A stretch of DNA of 64,000 nt, taken from contig CAZJFL010000006.1 in NCBI GenBank assembly GCA_964545575.1, positions 25,721 to 89,720 of the forward strand. The letters run 5' to 3'. The notes under the pieces are model-generated. The model did no database searches, was not told where the DNA came from, and saw only the letters and a program-made list of their open reading frames with translations. A program made the translations under genes and the position numbers. This document shows positions 3,900 to 53,574 of this stretch, piece after piece; the first letter of the stretch is position 1; every line of letters begins with the position of its first letter. This stretch comes from an uncultured Planctomycetales bacterium. Its GTDB lineage: Bacteria > Omnitrophota > Gorgyraeia > Gygaellales > Profunditerraquicolaceae.

Positions 3900-5213
3900 A
3901 TGGAACAGCAAAGGACGATTGCCAGAGACGCCAGTTTAAAAGGCGTAGGCCTGCATACGGCTAAGGAAGTGAACATTACCTTTAAGCCGGCAGGCCTGGA
4001 CTGCGGTATCAATTTTATCCGCACGGATACAACACCCAGAGTCACGATTAAAGCCTCGGTGGATACGCTGTTATCTCAGTCGCGCTCACCCCGGCGCACC
4101 TCCATAGGCAAGGACGGTATAGAGGTGCATACCATCGAGCATCTGATGGCGGCCCTGTCGGGTTTGGGGATAGACAACCTGGATATTGAAATTAACAACG
4201 AAGAAGTCCCCGGTCTTGACGGCAGCAGCCTGAATTTTTTAAAAGCGCTTACTGATGCGGGCATTAAAGAGCAGGCTAAGGCGCGTCATTATTATCTGGT
4301 CAGAGACCCTATTTTTGTAGAAGAGCCCGGCGGCTCGATTGTAGTTTTGCCGGCGCAGGATTTCAGGATATCCTACACTTTAAGTTACGATCACCCGCTT
4401 TTAAAAGCGGAGTTTATGGAGTTGGGCATTAATGCGGATACCTTTAAGGATGAATTAGCTGCTTCGCGCACCTTCTGCCTGGAAGAAGAAGCGACGGAAT
4501 TGCAGCAGCAGGGTATTGGACAGGGCGCAAATTACGAGAATACTCTTGTCTTAGGCAAGACCGGGGTGCTGAAGAACAAACTGCGCTATGAGGATGAGTT
4601 CATCCGGCATAAGATACTGGATTTAATGGGCGATTTATACGTGCTGGGCCAACCGATAAAGGCTCACGTTATTGCTTTAAGGAGCGGGCACTCTTTGAAC
4701 CTGAAATTAATCAAGAAAATAGACCGGGAAAAGCAAAAGCAGTCTGCCGGAGGCATCGGCGCTTCCTACTCTCCGCCTGAAGGGCAGGAGCTGGGTGCGC
4801 CTGAGATTATGAAAATATTGCCGCACCGCGAGCCTTTCCTGTTTGTAGATAGAATAACTTCTTTGGAAAAAGGCAGGCGCGCCGTGGGGATAAAGAACGT
4901 TACCATAAACGATTATTTTTTTAAAGGGCATTTTCCCACCAGACCGGTGATGCCGGGGGTGCTGATTATCGAAGCTATGGCGCAGGTGGGCGGGGTGATG
5001 ATGCTTTCTCCGGAGGAGAATCAGGGTAAGATCGCTTATTTTATCGCTGCCGATAATATAAAGTTTAGAAAAACCGTGGTGCCGGGCGACCAGCTGGTGC
5101 TGGAAGTAGATGCCGGAAAAATTAAACCTAAGACCGGCCTGGTGCATGCTAAGGCAAAAGTAGAGGGAAAAGTGGTCGCCGAAGCAGACCTTAAGTTTGT
5201 TTTAACGGATTAA
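3900..5213 (+). CDS. lpxC-fabZ: Bifunctional UDP-3-O-acyl-GlcNAc deacetylase LpxC / 3-hydroxyacyl-ACP dehydratase FabZ fusion
   Basis: The N-terminal 280 aa have LpxC hallmarks (GVGLHTAKEV…HTIEHL). The C-terminal 140 aa form a FabZ hotdog domain (…GHFPTRPVMPGVLIIEAMAQ…). A Gly/Ser/Pro linker joins them. Confidence 0.9.
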   Translation: MEQQRTIARDASLKGVGLHTAKEVNITFKPAGLDCGINFIRTDTTPRVTIKASVDTLLSQSRSPRRTSIGKDGIEVHTIEHLMAALSGLGIDNLDIEINNEEVPGLDGSSLNFLKALTDAGIKEQAKARHYYLVRDPIFVEEPGGSIVVLPAQDFRISYTLSYDHPLLKAEFMELGINADTFKDELAASRTFCLEEEATELQQQGIGQGANYENTLVLGKTGVLKNKLRYEDEFIRHKILDLMGDLYVLGQPIKAHVIALRSGHSLNLKLIKKIDREKQKQSAGGIGASYSPPEGQELGAPEIMKILPHREPFLFVDRITSLEKGRRAVGIKNVTINDYFFKGHFPTRPVMPGVLIIEAMAQVGGVMMLSPEENQGKIAYFIAADNIKFRKTVVPGDQLVLEVDAGKIKPKTGLVHAKAKVEGKVVAEADLKFVLTD

Positions 5214-6071: not shown

Positions 6072-6875
6072 ATGGAAAAAATTGGTTTAATCGCCGGTAA
6101 CCGTAAGTTTCCCCTTCTTTTTTGCGCCGCCGCCAAGAAAAGAGCCTATCATATCGTGGCCGTAGCCATAAAAGGGGACACCTCGCCCGCTTTAAAAAAA
6201 CTCGTGGATAAAATATACTGGCTTAGGCTCGGCGAGTTCACCCGCCTTTTTGAGATCTTTAAGAAAGAAGGGGTCACTAAAGTAGTCATGGCCGGCCAGA
6301 TCAGCCCGCACCGCCTTTTTAGCAAAGAAGTAAGTAAAAATAAAGCAATACAGGATATCTTAAGCAGCATCAGAGATAAAAAAGCCGACACCATATTCGG
6401 CGCGATAGCGCAAAAGTTAAAAGACTCCGGGATTGAATTAGCGGACTCTACTATTTTTATGGAAGAGTTTCTTCCTGCCAAAGGCACACTCGCCAGGAGA
6501 GAGCCGGATTTTGCCGAATGGGAAGATATCCACTTTGGCTTAAGGCTAGCCAAAGAAATTGCTTATTTGGATATCGGCCAGAGCGTGGCGGTAAAACATA
6601 AAGCCGTAGTGGCGGTGGAAGCTCTGGAAGGCACGGATAATCTCATCCGCCGCGCCGGTAAAATTGCCGGAAAAGGCGCAGTCATGGTTAAGGTCAGTAA
6701 GCCAAAGCAGGACATGCGATTTGATATCCCGGTCATAGGTTTGACCACCGTAAAGAACCTGATCAAAGCAGGTGTCTGCTGCCTGGCCATTGAAGCCGAT
6801 AAAACTCTTTTTATTGACAAGGAAGCCAGCATAAGACTAGCCGATAAAAAAGGTCTCGCCATCGTCGCAGTATAA
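6072..6875 (+). CDS. lpxI: UDP-2,3-diacylglucosamine hydrolase LpxI (DUF1009 family)
   Basis: 267 aa. N-terminus MEKIGLIAGNRKFPLLF is typical of LpxI. Positioned after lpxA as in lpxA-lpxI-lpxB clusters. Confidence 0.7.
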   Translation: MEKIGLIAGNRKFPLLFCAAAKKRAYHIVAVAIKGDTSPALKKLVDKIYWLRLGEFTRLFEIFKKEGVTKVVMAGQISPHRLFSKEVSKNKAIQDILSSIRDKKADTIFGAIAQKLKDSGIELADSTIFMEEFLPAKGTLARREPDFAEWEDIHFGLRLAKEIAYLDIGQSVAVKHKAVVAVEALEGTDNLIRRAGKIAGKGAVMVKVSKPKQDMRFDIPVIGLTTVKNLIKAGVCCLAIEADKTLFIDKEASIRLADKKGLAIVAV

Positions 6876-6888
6876 ATTACCCCTTCAG

Positions 6889-6917
6889 TTGAAAAGCTAT
6901 CTTTTTCATGCTATACT
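6889..6917 (+). promoter_or_regulatory. Sigma70-like promoter (TTGAAA-17-TATACT)
   Basis: The hexamers and a 17-nt spacer are read directly. The predicted TSS coincides with the start of a 12-bp helix arm at 6925. Confidence 0.4.
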
Positions 6918-6924
6918 TTATATT

Positions 6925-7102
6925 GCCGATAAAGGCAAACCCGCCGAAAGGCGGGGGCGCAAAGCCGCAGGCCTAAGGCCGTGAGTTAACGTTGGACGGC
7001 TACGGTAGCTGGGCTGCCGAAGGAGGTCGAGAGGAGTGCTTTCGACTGGCCTTTATCGGCGGTCGTTTTACAAGGAATCCCAACATTTTGTTGGGATTTT
7101 TT
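6925..7102 (+). ncRNA. Candidate structured small RNA (about 178 nt) of unknown family
   Basis: A 12-bp perfect long-range helix (GCCGATAAAGGC 6925-6936 with GCCTTTATCGGC 7049-7060). It encloses a GNRA hairpin CCCGCC-GAAA-GGCGGG and other hairpins. It ends in an intrinsic-terminator-like hairpin plus T-run. Local GC looks well above that of flanking genes. Confidence 0.3.
7076..7102 (+). terminator. Rho-independent terminator-like hairpin (AATCCCAAC-ATTTT-GTTGGGATT + TTTTTTG)
   Basis: Perfect 9-bp stem with a 5-nt loop, followed by a T-run. Confidence 0.45.
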
Positions 7103-7127
7103 GTTAGCAACCCCGTCGATTTCCCAC

Positions 7128-7365
7128 CCATATATTTTGTGGGGCCTGTCTTGGCTATTTTCTCGCGGGGACGCTTGTTGCGTCCCAGCGTGCCGCAATT
7201 GCGTCCTTCGCTTACGCTTCAGGACGCAACCCCTCTTAGTAAGCGCATGGGCTGCGCTCGTCTCCAGCCCCTCGCTCTCACCGAGTATCTATTTAGCGGG
7301 TGAACCGTGCCCGCTCGGGGCTTCCGACGCCCCGCTCTAAAATAGCCAAGCCACCCACAAAATAT
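7128..7365. repeat. Roughly 238-bp segment bounded by about 33-nt imperfect terminal inverted repeats (MITE-like, or domain 2 of a large RNA)
   Basis: Left end ATATTTTGTGGGGCC…TTGGCTATTTTCTCGC matches the reverse complement of right end GCTCTAAAATAGCCAAGCCACCCACAAAATAT. This gives nested helices 7130-7143/7352-7363 and 7153-7161/7341-7349. The interior holds two 7-bp hairpins sharing GCGTCC arms and a three-way junction at 7289-7345. Confidence 0.4.
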
Positions 7366-7416
7366 CGAATTCGTTCAAAAACTCTCCAGATTCATTTTTT
7401 GATGGCTTAAGTTGCA

Positions 7417-7491
7417 TTTAGCGGGTGGCACGGGGATGCTTCGCGAGCGCTATCATAGCGCAAGAAGCGCCCCGTGACAGGACCCGCTAAA
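7417..7491 (+). repeat. Family-2 palindromic element TTTAGCGGGT…ACCCGCTAAA (about 75-nt extended hairpin)
   Basis: Four stacked perfect stem segments (10+7+5+6 bp). The conserved termini recur at 28610-28681 in the same sense relative to the downstream gene. A related unit lies at 7289-7345. Confidence 0.55.
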
Positions 7492-7572
7492 CTCTTACTT
7501 CTATTCGTAATAATACCTTATTATTGGCATTTTCTATTTCCATTTTAGATGAGCGGTGTTATAATACAATCT

Positions 7573-8790
7573 ATGTTAAAGTTTCCAGCTAACTTTCTCT
7601 GGGGCGCGGCGACTTCTGCCTATCAGGTAGAAGGTAGTAATACTAATAGCGACTGGTGGGAGTGGGAGAAGCGCACTGGCAGGGAATCTTCGGGTGATGC
7701 CTGCCGCCATTACGCACTCTACCGGCAGGATTTCGATTTAGCTAAAGCCCTTAACCATAATGCCCACCGTCTATCCCTGGAATGGAGCCGCATCGAGCCC
7801 GAAGAGGGCAAGTTTTCAGAGCAAGAGCTCAAACATTACAAAGATGTGATCTTAGCGCTTAAGGAGCGCGGCCTCCAACCTATTGTTACGCTGCATCATT
7901 TCAGCAACCCCATCTGGCTTACGCGTTTAGGCGGATGGGAGAATAAAAAAGCCGCGCAATATTTTTTGCGTTTTGTCGAGCGCGCGGTGAATGAATTAGC
8001 CGACCAGGTGCATTACTGGATTCCTATAAACGAACCGATGGTCTATGTGTATCATAGCTACATCGCCGGAGTCTGGCCGCCGCAGGAAAAATCATTCTCC
8101 AAAGCCAGGTTAGTGGAGAATAATTTAGCCGCCGCCCATCTTAAAGCATACAGGTTAATCCACGCCATTTATAAAAATAGAAAATTAAACCCTCCTTTGG
8201 TAGGTATCGCGCAAAACATGCAGGCGTTTATAGCTTGTCAGGCGACACTCAGGAATAAGCTGGCAGTGCGTTTAAGGGACAGGCTCTTTAACTTTGCTTT
8301 TATCGCCAGACTCACACAGAGGCGTGCCCTTGATTTTATCGGGGTTAATTATTATTCGCGCGGGCTGGTAGAAGTAAACCATTGGGGTTTTAAGCATCTC
8401 TTGCTGGATAATTGTAAGAATAATCACCTTCCGGTGCGTAAGAACTCTTTAGGGTGGGATATCTATCCGGCCGGCCTGTATGCGCTGCTTTTGAAACTAA
8501 AAAAATATAAACTCCCTATATTGATTTCAGAAAACGGCATCTGCACTGAAGACGATAATTTGCGCTGGGATTACATATCCGAACATTTAAAAAATATACA
8601 TTCGGCAATAGAAAAAGGGGTGCCGGTATTAGGTTACATTTATTGGTCGTTGATCGATAATTATGAATGGGATAAAGCCTTTACCCCGCGCTTCGGTATT
8701 ATCGCAGTGGATTATTCTACCTATAAACGCACGGTCAGGGAAAGCGGGAAAAAACTAGCCCTGGTCTGTCAGCATAACGCGCTGGATTAA
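7573..8790 (+). CDS. Glycoside hydrolase family 1 beta-glucosidase
   Basis: MLKFPANFLWGAATSAYQVEGS N-terminus, …NEP… acid/base motif and I(S/T)ENG nucleophile motif. The ORF track starts at 7549. The ATG at 7573 fits the family N-terminus and follows a TGtTATAAT element at 7557-7565. Confidence 0.85.
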   Translation: MLKFPANFLWGAATSAYQVEGSNTNSDWWEWEKRTGRESSGDACRHYALYRQDFDLAKALNHNAHRLSLEWSRIEPEEGKFSEQELKHYKDVILALKERGLQPIVTLHHFSNPIWLTRLGGWENKKAAQYFLRFVERAVNELADQVHYWIPINEPMVYVYHSYIAGVWPPQEKSFSKARLVENNLAAAHLKAYRLIHAIYKNRKLNPPLVGIAQNMQAFIACQATLRNKLAVRLRDRLFNFAFIARLTQRRALDFIGVNYYSRGLVEVNHWGFKHLLLDNCKNNHLPVRKNSLGWDIYPAGLYALLLKLKKYKLPILISENGICTEDDNLRWDYISEHLKNIHSAIEKGVPVLGYIYWSLIDNYEWDKAFTPRFGIIAVDYSTYKRTVRESGKKLALVCQHNALD

Positions 8791-10806: not shown

Positions 10807-11018
10807 GTGAGGGCATAAGTTATGCCTGCCTGACCGGTGAGGCAGGGAGGTAGCTATTAGTTGGCTAACCGTCATAACTTATGTGCCCGAACTTACACCG
10901 CACCTTTTAAATATTCAAAAATACTTTAATAAAAAGGTGCGGTGTTAATTCGCGCAAATAACTTACGTCGCTCTTTCAGAGCTTCCGTAAGTTATGCGCT
11001 CATTAAAAGGAGAGGAAG
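10807..11018 (+). repeat. Family-1 structured intergenic element, copy A (three stem-loops)
   Basis: Starts GTGAGGGCATAAGTTATGCC right after the stop codon. SL1 is GGGCATAAGTTATG…CATAACTTATGTGCCC. SL2 is CACCGCACCTTTTA…TAAAAGGTGCGGTG. SL3 is GCGCAAATAACTTACG…CGTAAGTTATGCGC. It ends GCTCATTAAAAGGAG + ATG. Homologous modules lie at 13575, 29472, 30881 and 38930. Confidence 0.55.
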
Positions 11019-13501: not shown

Positions 13502-13573
13502 GCCGAGGTAGCTCAGTGGTAGAGCGCGGCCCTGAAAAGGCCGGCGTGGGGGGTCCGATTCCCTCCCTCGGCA
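13502..13573 (+). tRNA. tRNA-Phe (anticodon GAA)
   Basis: Hand-folded cloverleaf. Acceptor GCCGAGG/CCTCGGC, D-arm GCTC-AGTGGTA-GAGC, anticodon stem CGGCC/GGCCG with loop CTGAAAA, T-arm GGGGG-TCCGATT-CCCTC. No encoded CCA. Confidence 0.85.
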
Positions 13574-16497: not shown

Positions 16498-17040
16498 GTG
16501 CAGGAAAGGCGGGTTATCCCGGATAGCGAATTATTCAAATTCTTTGAAGAGGCTAAGAAGAGAAGCGAGCGGGTAAATTGGTATGGGTATTTCGTAACTT
16601 TGTATATGACTTGCTCAAGAGTAAGCGAAATAACCTCCCTCAAGAAATCGCAGATTAAAAATGGTATTATACAATTTCATAAAACTAAAGCTAAACCAAA
16701 AGCCGTCTTTATACACCCTCAATTAAGGCCTATTTTAGAAGAGGCCATTAAACGCTCAAAGGTTGAGCTGGTATTTCCTAATATAAATGGGGAAGAGATA
16801 AACCGCAGGAAGATAAGGGATAGAATGATAGAGCTATGTCGCCTGGTCGGGATACCTAAGGCCACGCCACACGATTTAAGACATACTTTTGCCAGCAGAA
16901 TTGATATAGAAAGCTATGTAAAACAAAAGATAGGTGGTTGGGTTAATAAAAGAGTGCTGGAGGATACCTATAACCATCCGGCAGAGGATATTGTAAGACA
17001 GGCATATTTCGGGGTTGATTTAATGCCTAAGTCAGAATAA
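16498..17040 (+). pseudogene. Truncated tyrosine recombinase/integrase (catalytic domain only)
   Basis: Box I Arg (CSRVSE), HDLRHTFAS (H-x-x-R) and …GW…EDTYNH (catalytic Tyr) are present. The reading frame opens only 12 nt upstream of the GTG (TAA at 16483), so the roughly 100-aa N-terminal core-binding domain is absent. Confidence 0.65.
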
Positions 17041-28609: not shown

Positions 28610-28681
28610 TTTAGCGGGTCCTGTCGCGGCATGTTTCTCGTCGCATCATGCTCCTCAAAACACGCCGCGCCACCCGCTAAA
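28610..28681 (-). repeat. Family-2 palindromic element (TTTAGCGGGT…ACCCGCTAAA), second locus
   Basis: Termini are identical to those of 7417-7491. The interior diverges but remains hairpin-forming. It ends 7 nt before the thpR start codon. Confidence 0.55.
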
Positions 28682-29215: not shown

Positions 29216-29262
29216 AGAAAAAGATTAATCTTCAGGGCAAGGTGAAATTCCCGACCGGCGGT

Positions 29263-29348
29263 AGCGCAGAAACGCACACCAAACCATCAATTTGGTTTGG
29301 GTGTTAGCGCAGAAGCGCACACCAATTTATCCTATAAAATTGGGTGTT
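29263..29348 (+). repeat. Tandem duplicated roughly 43-nt insertion in the riboswitch P3 loop
   Basis: Unit 1 is AGCGCAGAAACGCACACCAAAccatcaaTTTGGTTTGGGTGTT. Unit 2 is AGCGCAGAAGCGCACACCAATTTatcctatAAAATTGGGTGTT. The P3 hairpin is usually short. The CACCMAA…TTGGGTGTTA motif resembles the family-1 SL2 module. Confidence 0.6.
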
Positions 29349-29437
29349 AAAGTCCGCGAGCCAAAAAGGCATGAACTGGTGCGAGTCCAGTACCGATGGT
29401 ATAGTCCAGAGGGGAGAAGATTGAAATTACCTTTATA

Positions 29438-29471: not shown

Positions 29472-29671
29472 GAGCAGAAGACTTACGGAGTTCCGAAAGA
29501 GCGACGTAAGTCTTAGTGATAGCGTTATACGAAATTATTCACGTCTGCGAATTAACGCCGCACCTTTTATTTTTTTAAATGCCTTAAAAAGGTGCGGCGT
29601 AAGTTCGCACAAATAAGTTATGTCGATTAGCTCTAGTTAAATAACGGTCTCCATAACTTATGTGCTCACTT
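29472..29671 (+). repeat. Family-1 structured intergenic element, copy B
   Basis: Modules: GAGCAGAAGACTTACGGAG…CGACGTAAGTC; GCGAATTAACGCCGCACCTTTT…AAAAAGGTGCGGCG; ACAAATAAGTTATGTCG…CATAACTTATGTGCTCAC. It overlaps the first ATG of ribBA. Confidence 0.5.
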
Positions 29672-51093: not shown

Positions 51094-52377
51094 ATGCGCA
51101 ACACCGCATATTTTAAGGATAAAAAAATCACCATAGTGGGGCTTGCCCGTTCGGGGCTGGCCTGCGCAAACCTGCTCGACGCTTTAGGCGCTAAGGTTAG
51201 TATTACCGACCAACAGGATAGCGATACCACGCGCGCCCATGCCGCAAAATTAAAATCAAAAGAGATAAAATTAGAATTAGGCCGGCACACCCAGGATTTT
51301 GTTCAGGGGCAGGACATGCTAGTGGTATCTCCGGGTGTCCCGTATGATGCCTTGCCGCTTGCCTGGGCAAGAGAGAAGAATATCCCGGTCATCAGCGAGA
51401 TAGAAGTGGGCTGGCGGCTATGTCCGGCGGTGGTCATTGCGGTCACCGGCTCAAACGGTAAAACCACGGTTACCACTCTGATCGGTAAAATATTAGCCGC
51501 CGCCGGTAAAAGGGTTTTTATCTTAGGTAATATCGGAAAGCCTTTTTGCGGGGAGTTAGAAAAGATACAAGAAGGCGATTTTGTATCCCTGGAAGTAAGT
51601 TCTTTTCAGCTGGAGACCATCGATAAGTTTAAGCCTAAGGTAGCGGTTATGCTGAACTTTAGCCCCAACCACTTAGACCGGCATAAGGATATGCGGGAAT
51701 ACCTAAAGGCCAAAAAGCGCATCTTTCTGAATCAGGACGCTTCTGATTATTTAGTTTTAAATAAGCGTGACCCCGCACTAAAGGATTTAGCCGGTCAGGC
51801 CCGCTCTAAAATCATTTATTTTGCAGAAAGCCAGAGTTTGAACCCTAATCAGGCCGCGGTTTTAGAGGTAGGTTCAATATTGGGCATCGACAAAGAAACG
51901 TGCCTGGAGGTATTCAGGACATTCAAGGGGGTCGAGCACCGCTTGGAATCAGTGGGTGAGATACAGGGGGTAGAGTTTATCAATGATTCCAAGAGCACGA
52001 ACGTGGAATCCACAGCCTGGGCGTTAGAGACGTTGAAAAAACCGGTGATACTGATTGCCGGAGGCAGGGATAAAAATCTTGATTACAGCGCAATTCTGGA
52101 TTTAGTGCAGAGAAGAGTAAAAAGTATTATTTTAATCGGCGAGGCAAAGGTAAAATTAAGGCAGGCCTTGGAGAGTTTCCCTTATTTAGAAGATGCCCCG
52201 ACATTAGAAGAGGCGTTAGAGTTAGCGCGCCGCAAGGCCTCGCACGGCGATTGCGTTTTGCTTTCTCCGATGTGCACAAGCTTCGATATGTTTCAGGATT
52301 TCGAAGACAGGGGCAGGGCTTTCAAAAAGGCAGTTTATAGCTTAATGACAAAGGAGAAGATTGATCCTAGTAATTAG
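51094..52377 (+). CDS. murD: UDP-MurNAc-L-Ala--D-glutamate ligase
   Basis: Rossmann N-terminus and P-loop VTGSNGKTT. Confidence 0.9.
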   Translation: MRNTAYFKDKKITIVGLARSGLACANLLDALGAKVSITDQQDSDTTRAHAAKLKSKEIKLELGRHTQDFVQGQDMLVVSPGVPYDALPLAWAREKNIPVISEIEVGWRLCPAVVIAVTGSNGKTTVTTLIGKILAAAGKRVFILGNIGKPFCGELEKIQEGDFVSLEVSSFQLETIDKFKPKVAVMLNFSPNHLDRHKDMREYLKAKKRIFLNQDASDYLVLNKRDPALKDLAGQARSKIIYFAESQSLNPNQAAVLEVGSILGIDKETCLEVFRTFKGVEHRLESVGEIQGVEFINDSKSTNVESTAWALETLKKPVILIAGGRDKNLDYSAILDLVQRRVKSIILIGEAKVKLRQALESFPYLEDAPTLEEALELARRKASHGDCVLLSPMCTSFDMFQDFEDRGRAFKKAVYSLMTKEKIDPSN

Positions 52378-52378
52378 T

Positions 52379-52465
52379 ACGCCAGTAACTAGTAACTGGT
52401 AATCTTTTTAAAAATTACTAGTTACAAGTTACTAGTTTACCAGTTACTAAAATTGTGGTTATAAT
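52379..52465. repeat. AT-rich compound palindrome built from AGTAACT/AGTTACT heptamers
   Basis: GCCAGTAACTAGTAACTGGTAA-tctttttaaaaa-TTACTAGTTACAAGTTACTAGTTTACCAGTTACT. GTAACTAGTAAC is the reverse complement of GTTACTAGTTAC. Confidence 0.55.
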
Positions 52466-52479
52466 TTTGAGTTTTAAGT

Positions 52480-53574
52480 ATGGCTCGCAATACCAGGATA
52501 AACCTGTTTACAGTCACGGTAATTTTAATCTGTATTGGTATCGTGATGATCTATAGCGCCTCCAGCATCTACGCCTGGGAAAGGTATCAGGACAGCGCAT
52601 TTTTCTTAAAAAGGCACATCCTGTTTTTGGCGATAGGAATAGTGCTTACTTTTCTGGTGATGAGCATTGATTATAAAGTCTTCAGAAAGTTCTCCCGGCC
52701 GCTTTTATTTATTTCTTTCTTTTTGCTGGCCTTAGTTTTAATCCCCGGCATCGGCAGGGAAGTCTCCGGGGCAAGGCGGTGGTTCAGGTTTAAGGTCATC
52801 AGTTTCCAGCCGTCAGAATTAGCAAACCTGGCAGTGATCATTTATGTCGCGGATTTTATCGCCCGCAAGGGCAATCTCATTAAAACATTTCTGAAGGGCT
52901 TTCTGCCGCCGCTATTAATCTTAGGGGCGGCGGCGCTCTTGATTCTTATCCAGCCGGACTTAGGCACGGTAATGGCTATGGGAATAGTGGTATTTATTAT
53001 GCTTTTTGTCGCGGGGGCGCGCGTATCGTATCTAGCCTCGGTAATATTAGCCAGCCTTCCGGCGCTTTATCTTTTGATCTTTCGGGTTCCTTACCGCCGG
53101 ATGCGCATCATGGCTTTTTTAAATCCTTGGGTAGACCCGCGGGGGAGCGGTTTTCAGATTATCCAGTCGCAGATCGCCTTGGGCTCAGGAGGGATGTTCG
53201 GGGTGGGCCTGGGGCATTCCATGCAAAAACTTTTTTATTTACCCGCAGCGCATACGGATTTTATTTTTTCCATTATCGGAGAAGAATTGGGTTTGGGCGG
53301 GACCATCGCGGTGATTATCTTGTTTGTTATCCTGATCCTGGAAGGGCTGAAGGTAGTCAAGAATGCCCCGGATAAGTTCGGTTATTTTTTAGCCTTGGGC
53401 CTGGTTTCTATGATTTCTATCAAGGCAATCATCAATATCGGAGTTTCCTGCGGCCTGCTGCCTACTAAAGGCCTGCCGCTTCCTTTTATCAGTTACGGCG
53501 GTTCTTCCTTTATCTTTGATTTGGTTAGCGTAGGGATCCTGATGAATATCGCCCGCACCGGAGAATATCCATGA
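52480..53574 (+). CDS. ftsW: Peptidoglycan glycosyltransferase FtsW (SEDS family)
   Basis: 10-TM SEDS protein. Position between murD and murG. Confidence 0.9.
   Translation: MARNTRINLFTVTVILICIGIVMIYSASSIYAWERYQDSAFFLKRHILFLAIGIVLTFLVMSIDYKVFRKFSRPLLFISFFLLALVLIPGIGREVSGARRWFRFKVISFQPSELANLAVIIYVADFIARKGNLIKTFLKGFLPPLLILGAAALLILIQPDLGTVMAMGIVVFIMLFVAGARVSYLASVILASLPALYLLIFRVPYRRMRIMAFLNPWVDPRGSGFQIIQSQIALGSGGMFGVGLGHSMQKLFYLPAAHTDFIFSIIGEELGLGGTIAVIILFVILILEGLKVVKNAPDKFGYFLALGLVSMISIKAIINIGVSCGLLPTKGLPLPFISYGGSSFIFDLVSVGILMNIARTGEYP

Follow-up and report, generated by a model that had tools for sequence, protein, structure and literature searches.

Riboswitches of the c-di-GMP-I class (GEMM-I; RF01051/CL00126), represented by Vc2 of Vibrio cholerae and Cd1 of Clostridioides difficile, are composed of P1, P2 with a GNRA tetraloop, and P3, have a G, an A and a C in the ligand site, and lie in the 5' leader of the one operon upstream of which they are kept. 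Terminator-type platforms are a common design among them. These features are found again in the locus described here.

The REP/BIME and REPIN elements of Proteobacteria, which are mobilised by RAYT (a Y1 HUH transposase), are small, non-coding imperfect palindromes (REPINs, about 70-110 nt) with many dispersed copies; they lie in operon gaps in both orientations, have strand-specific imperfections (G.T on one strand) and show no target duplications. Hairpin MITEs such as Correia/NEMIS, ERIC and RUP are non-coding intergenic elements of 70-230 nt with terminal inverted repeats of about 30 nt, present or absent between lineages. Integron attC sites are imperfect hairpins that work from a single strand, with a conserved base, unpaired bases, a variable terminal structure and strand asymmetry. 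The repeats at our locus resemble each of the three in these features of form and placement and differ from each in others given below.

We have analysed a stretch of 64,000 nt (hereafter, the window), in which the block 6880-7548 is likely a composite, where a c-di-GMP riboswitch with its terminator and two copies of a palindromic repeat stand together as unrelated parts. With similarly good confidence, we assign 6889-7104 to the riboswitch unit and approximately 7113-7491 to inserted DNA. The riboswitch is of an already known kind and is routine; the repeat family, apparently undescribed so far and seemingly a new REP/MITE-like variant, is of more use.

Composition of the block

All five elements described in this block by a first-pass annotation, with every hairpin and helix, are present where it had placed them. 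Its statement that the block has no credible ORF also holds, as three ORFs across the block (6992-7303, 7101-7340 and, on the minus strand, 6986-7198) gave no match in Pfam; a tRNA/tmRNA scan found none within the block. The picture of a conspicuously GC-rich block in an AT-rich genome was overdrawn, with a GC content of 45.9% in the window and 52-56% in the block, a modest contrast. There is also no sign of a missing lpxB, which had been expected here; relatives have retained the sequence of lpxI, riboswitch and GH1. A permissive search of both strands of 6800-7620 against Rfam 15 (E <= 10), as the annotation had proposed, detected the riboswitch only, with the rest at chance level, and the known family explains 6925-7104 and no other part. 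In the relative L132, the promoter, aptamer, terminator and start of the GH1 gene lie within 252 nt, without the approximately 445 nt that hold the repeat copies E1 and E2 in the window, and the E1/E2 spot is empty.

Promoter and aptamer

The sigma70-like promoter of the riboswitch transcript (6889-6917, plus strand; TTGAAA, a 17-nt spacer and TG-n-TATACT) has 10 of 12 hexamer matches. By itself the promoter scan carries little weight (3 sites against 1.1 expected), while both the -35 and the -10 hexamers are invariant across six orthologous loci, and the first-pass annotation was right in proposing this element. The predicted transcription start, about 6924-6925, coincides with the first base of the aptamer, at which transcription would begin.

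The aptamer of the c-di-GMP-I clan (GEMM-I) occupies 6925-7022 on the plus strand and was matched full-length by RF03167 (73.4 bits against a gathering score of 59; E 1.7e-15; model positions 1-80 of 80), although no riboswitch consensus had been recognised here before. In the cmscan alignment, the P2 hairpin lies at 6940-6955 with a GAAA tetraloop at 6946-6949, and the ligand-site bases are G6934, A6961 and C7017, which we take to be the equivalents of G20, A47 and C92 in Vc2 numbering. The minimum free energy (MFE) fold of 6920-7110 has a z of -6.8, and none of 200 shuffles was as good. Orthologous aptamers are present in seven loci (L131, L132, L133, L159, L160, L161 and L162), and that of L131 scores as canonical RF01051. 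Unlike the c-di-GMP-I riboswitches known so far, the aptamer in the window scores best with the model of the c-di-GMP-I-GGC variant (RF03167), yet has no variant-defining G; we rejected identity with the variant, as an A stands at 6961. When the consensus CGCGAAGC is compared with CGCAAAGC of the window, only two positions there are mismatched, and the variant-defining base is one of them. P3 also differs from the known class in carrying a lineage-specific insert. Our search of the literature on Omnitrophica riboswitches and on the GGC variant found nothing relevant.

Expression platform

A variable hairpin (7026-7046, plus strand; GTCGA...TCGAC) lies between the aptamer and a switching word, GCCTTTATCGGCGGT (7049-7063, plus strand), which is complementary to 6922-6936. 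The two form a perfect helix of 12 bp (6925-6936/7049-7060), which the MFE fold lengthens to 15 bp (6922-6936/7049-7063). Within the target fall P1 (its 5' strand), J1/2 with the G20 equivalent, and the beginning of P2. The core of the word, CCTTTRTCGGC, is invariant in six orthologues, its sole change being compatible with a G.U pair. On the basis of predicted folding, 7049-7063 can form a helix that competes with the aptamer. The intrinsic terminator (7070-7104, plus strand) has the stem AATCCCAAC/GTTGGGATT followed by T6, and its sequence is nearly invariant among orthologues; it escaped the terminator scan, as the T-run pairs with the A-rich 5' extension of the stem. The first-pass annotation had correctly drawn the 12-bp helix, the GNRA hairpin and the terminator hairpin of this unit, but had not recognised a known riboswitch in it. 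At 7026-7046, most orthologues seem, by eye, to be able to form a hairpin of differing sequence. A small ORF following the SD-like AAGGAGG (7020-7026) was considered and discarded, since its 23-codon GTG frame in the window is not conserved in L132.

The competing helix would act by pairing of the word 7049-7063 with the 5' third of the aptamer, in competition with ligand binding, after which the intrinsic terminator follows. This platform departs from the c-di-GMP-I riboswitches described above in that the competing helix is directed at the aptamer's 5' side and no antiterminator can be discerned: none was found by constrained and co-transcriptional folding, and the terminator was predicted alike with and without the aptamer.

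Relation of the riboswitch to the GH1 gene

In L132, L159, L160 and L162, 105-117 nt separate the riboswitch unit from the GH1 beta-glucosidase gene downstream of it, regardless of which gene stands further upstream, and the aptamer is upstream of GH1 also in L131. Because the unit lies at this distance before GH1 in six orthologous loci, it belongs to the GH1-patatin operon and not to the lipid A cluster. We consider it likely that the riboswitch is a cis-regulator, through transcription attenuation, of the operon for the GH1 beta-glucosidase and the cNMP-binding patatin. This would place a GH1 glycosidase and a cyclic-nucleotide-binding patatin phospholipase under c-di-GMP control in a barely studied phylum.

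An unlikely alternative is that the unit makes a free-standing c-di-GMP-binding sRNA of about 180 nt, acting in trans or as a ligand sponge with no control of read-through into GH1. The terminator predicted in both conformations, the antiterminator that was not found, the distance of 470 nt between terminator and gene in the window, and the conserved TGnTATAAT that GH1 itself has 7-10 nt before its ATG are all in line with such an RNA. However, the unit is always directly upstream of GH1 on the same strand, whatever the upstream gene, which is the signature of a cis-regulator, and terminator-type platforms are common in this riboswitch class.

The TGnTATAAT was seen at this distance in seven loci; in the window it is part of the promoter-like TTTCCA-17-TG-n-TATAAT (7537-7575, plus strand), 7 nt before ATG 7573. 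This ATG is probably the true start of GH1 (405 aa), and the N-terminus MLKFPANFLWGAATSAYQVEG matches orthologues of 405-406 aa. Since this conserved promoter of leaderless type stands at its start, GH1 may be wholly independent of read-through, as far as sequence can tell. With the arrival of the repeats, the distance between the riboswitch terminator and the GH1 start downstream grew from about 30 nt to about 470 nt. We are fairly confident that the riboswitch has been displaced by about 450 nt from the gene it serves, an example of repeats physically uncoupling a riboswitch from its gene and a difference from the known c-di-GMP-I riboswitches, as here insertions part the two.

Repeat copies in the window

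Three members of one repeat family, E1, E2 and E3, are found in the window, with the asymmetric termini TTTWGCGGGTCCTGTC ... GCCACCCGCWAAA. The terminus word has 4 matches in the window, with 0.3 expected, and this was reached in none of 100 shuffles.

E1 (7135-7362, minus strand; termini TTTTGTGGGGCCTGTC ... GCCACCCACAAAA) is a member of the long class and measures 228 nt, the usual length of this class being about 174 nt. Its minus strand folds better than its plus strand (-116.6 vs -102.5 kcal/mol), and copies elsewhere show 88-92% identity with E1. The nested inverted repeats that had been drawn around this domain (7132-7143/7354-7365 and 7147-7170/7330-7353) are present, and the three-way-junction unit at 7289-7345, also noted at first pass, is real as well: it makes up E1's conserved inner domain. 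An extra segment of 53 nt (7199-7251) with the hairpin TTGCGTCC...GGACGCAA, which falls in gap columns of the alignments, partly duplicates the adjoining hairpin and marks a 228-nt subfamily; the same insert is found in a copy at another locus (L139/L154) of the same sample series.

E1 would sit inside the remnant of another palindrome. The right arm of this outer palindrome is CGAATTCGTTCAAAAACTCTCCAGATTCATTT (7366-7397), and homologous right flanks occur in L135, L140, L148, L150 and L158, together there with the inverted left arm AAATGAATCTG..CG. A weak, truncated left arm may lie at 7113-7134; to the eye, the sequence there looks like what adjoins E1-like copies on the left in L135, L148 and L158, and our confidence in it is low. 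Three Logan contigs all end at 7170, inside the E1 terminus; the family breaks short-read assemblies and explains contig breaks.

E2 (7417-7491, plus strand, which is the better-folding strand) is a member of the short class with 75 nt, found by our model R1 with 72.2 bits (E 7e-20), and in L130, a relative at 85%, the right end of an E2-like copy stands at the same place. The annotated hairpin is confirmed, as is the recurrence of its termini at 28610-28681: here E3, a short-class member of 72 nt on the minus strand (80.2 bits with model R1), occupies an 84-nt gap between a cinA-like gene and thpR. The site of E3 is empty (13 nt) in L164 and L168, which are relatives at 77% and 84%.

These copies bear on the earlier proposal of one multi-domain RNA of OLE, GOLLD or ROOL scale spanning the whole 650-nt block. 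Dense and stable predicted structure, a promoter at the 5' end and the absence of coding capacity would fit such an RNA, but an intrinsic terminator ends at 7104, the domains that follow are dispersed repeats also met singly at other loci, and the favoured strands of E1 and E2 are opposite. Moreover, the block is not conserved as a unit, being without these domains in L132, and the large structured RNA families of Rfam 15 (OLE, GOLLD, ROOL and others) had no match on either strand at E <= 10. We regard this reading as extremely improbable. The other reading offered at first pass, in which small palindromic mobile elements have piled up, holds in essence for approximately 7113-7491, with dispersed copies at unrelated loci, but not for 6889-7104. 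Knowledge of the family aids annotation, as spurious ORFs and false calls of a giant RNA can be removed.

Structure of the repeat family

All members share a basal stem of 9-10 bp (TTTWGCGGG/CCCGCWAAA) and an asymmetric internal loop, with GG opposite ACAGG on the better-folding strand, followed by a second stem. The top is variable, from a tetraloop up to a three-way junction of about 100 nt. A K-turn reading of the conserved internal loop was rejected on inspection, because it would put G.G pairs at positions that call for sheared G.A pairs.

In the long class, a three-way-junction fold is supported by covariation. With this fold 95.6% of cells are paired, compared with 81% in shuffles and 32-47% when slid, and compensatory change is seen in 28 of 46 pairs, compared with 8-12 when slid. 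Covariation thus gives strong support to the structural constraint that had been suspected in the E1 domain and its three-way junction, while arm-to-arm gene conversion can also make inverted repeats covary with no selection on function. Of the two strands, the same one is the more stable in 43 of the 47 short copies and in 18 of the 20 long ones, counts that are not independent since the compared sequences share descent, and the better-folding strand has about twice as many G.U pairs.

In these features the family resembles attC, and we have considered whether the elements are folded single-strand sites, like attC, of an integron-like or other tyrosine-recombinase system: the conserved basal stem, unpaired bases, second stem, variable terminal structure and strand asymmetry would all suit it. 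The cores, the arrangement in the genome and the gene neighbours are at odds with it, however. The ends are TTTWGCGGG ... CCCGCWAAA and not the RYYYAAC/GTTRRRY cores; same-orientation cassette arrays are lacking, with mixed orientations and housekeeping operon genes as neighbours; and no intI was seen, the only integrase in the window being a truncated phage-type fragment beside tRNA-Phe. Such an origin is very unlikely.

Distribution and genomic setting

Dozens of Candidatus Omnitrophota MAGs carry the family, whose copies come in a short class of about 71 nt and a long class of about 174 nt. The terminus pattern matched at least 119 genome stretches, and complete elements with both termini were found only in MAGs of Omnitrophota or in those labelled Planctomycetales or Margulisiibacteriota. 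Among 2.9 million viral contigs there was 1 match, so the family is not a phage feature. No Rfam family matches it, and in the literature on Omnitrophota repeats we found no paper on it. The elements differ from REP/BIME and REPIN in having no GTAG-type head and halves that are not self-palindromic, and in having a long three-way-junction class, conserved loops and termini conserved across MAGs of the phylum.

Copies fill short gaps within housekeeping operons in either orientation: by crude ORF calls, 56 of 62 copies lie between co-directional genes, and orientation relative to the genes is 25:31. The flanking genes that were checked are all housekeeping (argG, argH, folD, MTHFR), and so are those checked between paired elements (argG, a phosphorylase and similar genes). 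Where copies lie within 8 kb of each other, opposite orientations outnumber like ones, and copies are repeatedly nested in hairpin loops. In L012, L013, L021 and L071, for example, the position of the element is seemingly kept in several MAGs while the stems differ, and the flanks look alike.

This setting raises the question of whether the elements are cis-acting structures maintained by the host, and not mobile DNA, serving as mRNA stabilisers, RNase III or processing sites, attenuators, or DNA sites for gyrase or nucleoid proteins (cf. E. coli REP/BIME). Their tight placement between co-directional genes of housekeeping operons, the seemingly kept positions with changing stems just mentioned, and the strong structural constraint with conserved unpaired words speak for such roles, which are also compatible with a mobile-DNA origin. 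On the other side, one strand folds better, yet with an orientation of 25:31 half of the copies would put the poorer strand in the mRNA. The excess of opposite orientations among neighbours within 8 kb, and the same gaps in relatives with neither element nor replacement, also count against maintenance by the host, which we judge improbable.

Proposed mobility of the repeats

On balance, we favour the view that the repeats are non-autonomous elements, moved or copied as a single-stranded hairpin by an enzyme encoded elsewhere. The hairpin would be that of one particular strand, and it would insert into AT-rich gaps, possibly at TTT^AAA, as well as into loops of other hairpins. In all comparisons of filled with empty sites, the lineages share at most 85% protein identity. 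No direct repeats indicating a target-site duplication were seen beside about 50 short copies, in contrast to the TA of Correia elements. Among 143 fetched loci (119 genome and 24 metagenome), there was no transposase, autonomous copy or parent insertion sequence, and a search of the same loci for unpaired or distant termini gave truncated remnants only. Hairpin MITEs differ further in that here no parent IS with the same ends was found in these loci and the interior is kept by compensatory change instead of decaying. The family offers a tractable case for how, and by which enzyme, non-coding hairpins spread without target duplications.

A bolder reading, which we hold to be possible but doubtful, is that the family is a new, Omnitrophota-specific structured single-strand element of DNA or RNA, namely a self-propagating hairpin. 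Its conserved base and three-way-junction core would be recognised by an enzyme new to repeat families, for which a new HUH enzyme, a tyrosine recombinase, or a reverse transcriptase working on a transcribed copy would be candidates, and insertion would occur at TTT^AAA and in hairpin loops without target duplication. If this were true, the covariation would mirror selection on the element's own replication cycle. The ends of the repeats bear no more than a vague likeness to those of Tn3, IS66, Tn7 or ISAs1-like elements.

Composition of the block

The non-coding block at 6880-7548 lies downstream of lpxD, an lpxC-fabZ fusion, lpxA and lpxI (ending at 6875), and is followed by genes for a GH1 glycoside hydrolase and a cNMP-binding patatin-like phospholipase. 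The block is real but composite: a known riboswitch is joined in it by two members (E1 and E2) of a palindromic repeat family, and the giant multi-domain RNA proposed in the first-pass annotation is absent. The alternative proposed there, a pile-up of palindromic elements, is borne out by E1 and E2, and E1-like copies occur at loci with other flanks. All helices listed for the block were found in the sequence, and none of the three ORFs crossing it has a family match. The genome had been called AT-rich, whereas the mean GC content of the window is 45.9% (52-56% in the block), and the idea of a missing lpxB does not hold either; relatives keep the order lpxI, non-coding region, GH1.

The region is present in eight metagenome contigs at 100% identity. 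The top-ranking named homologues of GH1 and ThpR come from Candidatus Omnitrophota, so the source organism is probably an Omnitrophota bacterium. LpxC and FabZ form a single fused ORF of 437 aa (3900-5213), and this fusion is also found in the compared loci L131, L132 and L133.

A c-di-GMP riboswitch upstream of GH1

In a cmscan search against Rfam, which had been suggested as a check, a known family explained 6925-7022, a full-length aptamer of the c-di-GMP-I clan (73.4 bits, gathering score 59, E 1.7e-15). The top-scoring model was the "GGC" variant, RF03167; in the conserved alignment stretch, the window departs from RF03167 at the variant signature, the consensus having ACGCGAAGC and the window GCGCAAAGC. 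By correspondence with Vc2 numbering, the ligand-site bases are G6934, A6961 and C7017, which make up the canonical c-di-GMP triad. Because of this triad and because the orthologous aptamer of L131 was assigned to canonical RF01051, the window aptamer is classed, on its sequence, as c-di-GMP-I and not as the GGC variant. The L131 orthologue has about 40 additional nt inserted in P2 (L131 3715-3765) and is placed in RF01051 rather than RF03167; in this lineage, the RF03167 label is therefore read as overall sequence similarity and not as the binding-site change of the variant.

The riboswitch unit (6889-7104, + strand) includes a promoter-like site, TTGAAA-17-TATACT, whose putative start is the first aptamer base, and a terminator hairpin (7070-7104, + strand) of 9-16 bp followed by a T6 run. 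A switching word at 7049-7063 is complementary to 6922-6936, and because this target takes in the 5' side of P1, the junction that holds the G20 equivalent and the initial pairs of P2, the predicted helix would exclude the ligand-competent fold.

Syntenic loci were reached through GH1 orthologues at 65-85% identity, and the aptamer was found in every locus that takes in the upstream region. The distance from the aptamer end to the GH1 ATG is 105-117 nt in L132, L159, L160 and L162, even with an upstream gene other than lpxI. In an alignment of orthologous loci, the -35 and -10 hexamers are invariant, as is the switching word, its sole change being G.U-compatible, and the terminator is nearly so. 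Because the aptamer is kept near GH1 whatever the upstream gene and these signals are conserved, the unit is assigned by comparative evidence to the GH1-patatin operon.

TGnTATAAT stands 7-10 nt 5' of the GH1 ATG in all seven loci (the window, L130, L131, L132, L159, L160 and L162), which suggests a leaderless mRNA; the GH1 start is probably ATG 7573 (405 aa) and not 7549, with the promoter stretch at 7537-7575. TTGGGA in the 3' arm of the terminator lies about 17 nt 5' of the GH1 -10 in L132 and, by eye, apparently at the same spacing in L159, L160 and L162; it could double as the -35 of the GH1 promoter. Folding gave no antiterminator and predicted the terminator in both states. A terminated small RNA as the product is rather unlikely, and we lean toward cis attenuation as the mode of action.

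lpxI and GH1 are 252 nt apart in L132, where about 30 nt separate the terminator from the ATG. The aptamer-to-ATG distance in the window is 551 nt, and the extra stretch of about 445 nt relative to L132 holds E1 (7135-7362) and E2 (7417-7491); the block beyond the riboswitch is accordingly taken to be inserted repeat DNA. The three Logan contigs that match this locus all break off at 7170, within the terminus of E1, as contigs running into a repeat would be expected to do.

The palindromic repeat family

E1, E2 and E3 (28610-28681) have common asymmetric termini, TTTWGYGGGKCCTGTC at one end and GCCACCCRCWAAA, the reverse complement of TTTWGYGGGTGGC, at the other. Scanning one genome per species for the termini yielded at least 119 stretches, and complete elements with both termini were found only in Omnitrophota MAGs and some labelled Planctomycetales or Margulisiibacteriota, matches in other taxa being single chance hits; a viral scan gave one match. 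The two main size classes are 70-76 nt, with about 50 copies, and 166-180 nt; rarer sizes are 90, 121, 206 and 228 nt. Of 62 copies, 56 are placed between co-directional genes, mostly filling the gap, with an orientation of 25:31 relative to these genes; the flanking genes examined are housekeeping genes. A 28-mer of E1 led to 24 metagenome loci whose elements are 174-178 nt long and 88-92% identical to E1, with different flanks; one such copy, from the same sample series (L139/L154), is 228 nt long and has the 53-nt internal insert of E1. The family is not described in Rfam 15 or in the literature searched, and is apparently an undescribed, structure-constrained family widespread in Omnitrophota.

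The long-class consensus fold has eight helices, and its three-way junction is closed by three stacked stems. The hairpin that makes up one arm has CWCGCWGGGG as its conserved loop, while on the other arm the words GAGCGGGCAYGG and AGAGCGAGG are unpaired and conserved. The "three-way-junction unit" and "paired hairpins" of the first-pass annotation correspond to portions of this fold and to the 53-nt insert. Among 24 distinct sequences, 95.6% of cells are paired, against 81.4% when shuffled and 32-47% with partners slid, and 28 of 46 pairs have compensatory changes against 8-12 when slid, although arm-to-arm conversion can mimic covariation and the copies are related by descent. Of the two strands, 5'-TTTWGCGGGTGGC...GACAGGACCCGCWAAA-3' folds more stably in 43 of 47 short copies (by about 5 kcal/mol) and in 18 of 20 long ones (by about 10 kcal/mol), and its G.U pairs are about twice as numerous; it is the - strand in E1 and the + strand in E2.

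Since the fold belongs to one strand and the copies are oriented at random with respect to both genes and neighbouring copies, a simple mRNA-level role is disfavoured, and the pattern would fit an element that is acted on in single-stranded form, like REP/REPIN, IS200-type ends and attC sites. The family differs from MITEs, as no target duplication was visible at the copies, no transposase was found between the termini and no parent IS was found; from REP, in having no GTAG-type head; and from attC, in having neither AAC/GTT cores nor arrays.

Gain, loss and nesting

In the window, E3 makes up 72 nt of the 84-nt cinA-thpR gap, which in relatives of 77% and 84% identity is a 13-nt TyCTATTTTTAAA; this empty gap, at one locus, suggests that the element went in at TTT^AAA. 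Because the E1/E2 and E3 spots are occupied by different palindromic repeats in other lineages, both gaps have been colonised repeatedly; all filled/empty contrasts are between distant lineages. At the E1/E2 spot, L131 (a 71% relative) has at 3940-4095 five copies of another short inverted word, GGGTCTGTCCCC / GGGGACAGTCCC / GGGGACTGACCC, and in the cinA-thpR gap L167 (an 80% relative) has at 1077-1226 a 150-nt AT-rich palindromic repeat from CAAATGTCAAA / TTTGACATTTG.

Nesting occurs often. E1-like copies sit inside an outer palindrome, AAATGAATCTG..CG ... CGCCAGATTCATTT, of which a right arm (7366-7397) and a weak left arm remain in the window. The 90-nt short variants (in several MAGs; L012, L109 and L122) have CCTGCCTGCCGGCAGGCAGG, a GC-rich 20-nt palindrome, within the apical loop, which is either a sub-family mark or a second tiny element targeting hairpin loops.

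Other elements in the window

An FMN riboswitch (RF00050, 92 bits; 29224-29425, + strand) has an 84-nt insert in one loop (about 29262-29346), composed of two units in tandem, each about 42 nt long (TAGCGCAGAAnCGCACACCAA...TTGGGTGT) and forming hairpins. A second palindromic repeat family, with arms ...CGCCGCACCTTTT / AAAAGGTGCGGCG..., has copies at 10870-10970, directly 3' of the patatin gene, and at 29520-29635, in the stretch from the terminator of the FMN riboswitch to the gene at 29660; an additional hairpin lies at 29472-29516. Overlapping inverted repeats of GTAACTAGTAAC / TTACTAGTTAC words lie at 52385-52449, between ORFs 51094-52377 and 52480-53574. A tRNA-Phe gene (13502-13573) is followed by ORFs with no family match and a truncated phage-type integrase (180 aa; 16498-17040), which are probably a decayed integrated element.
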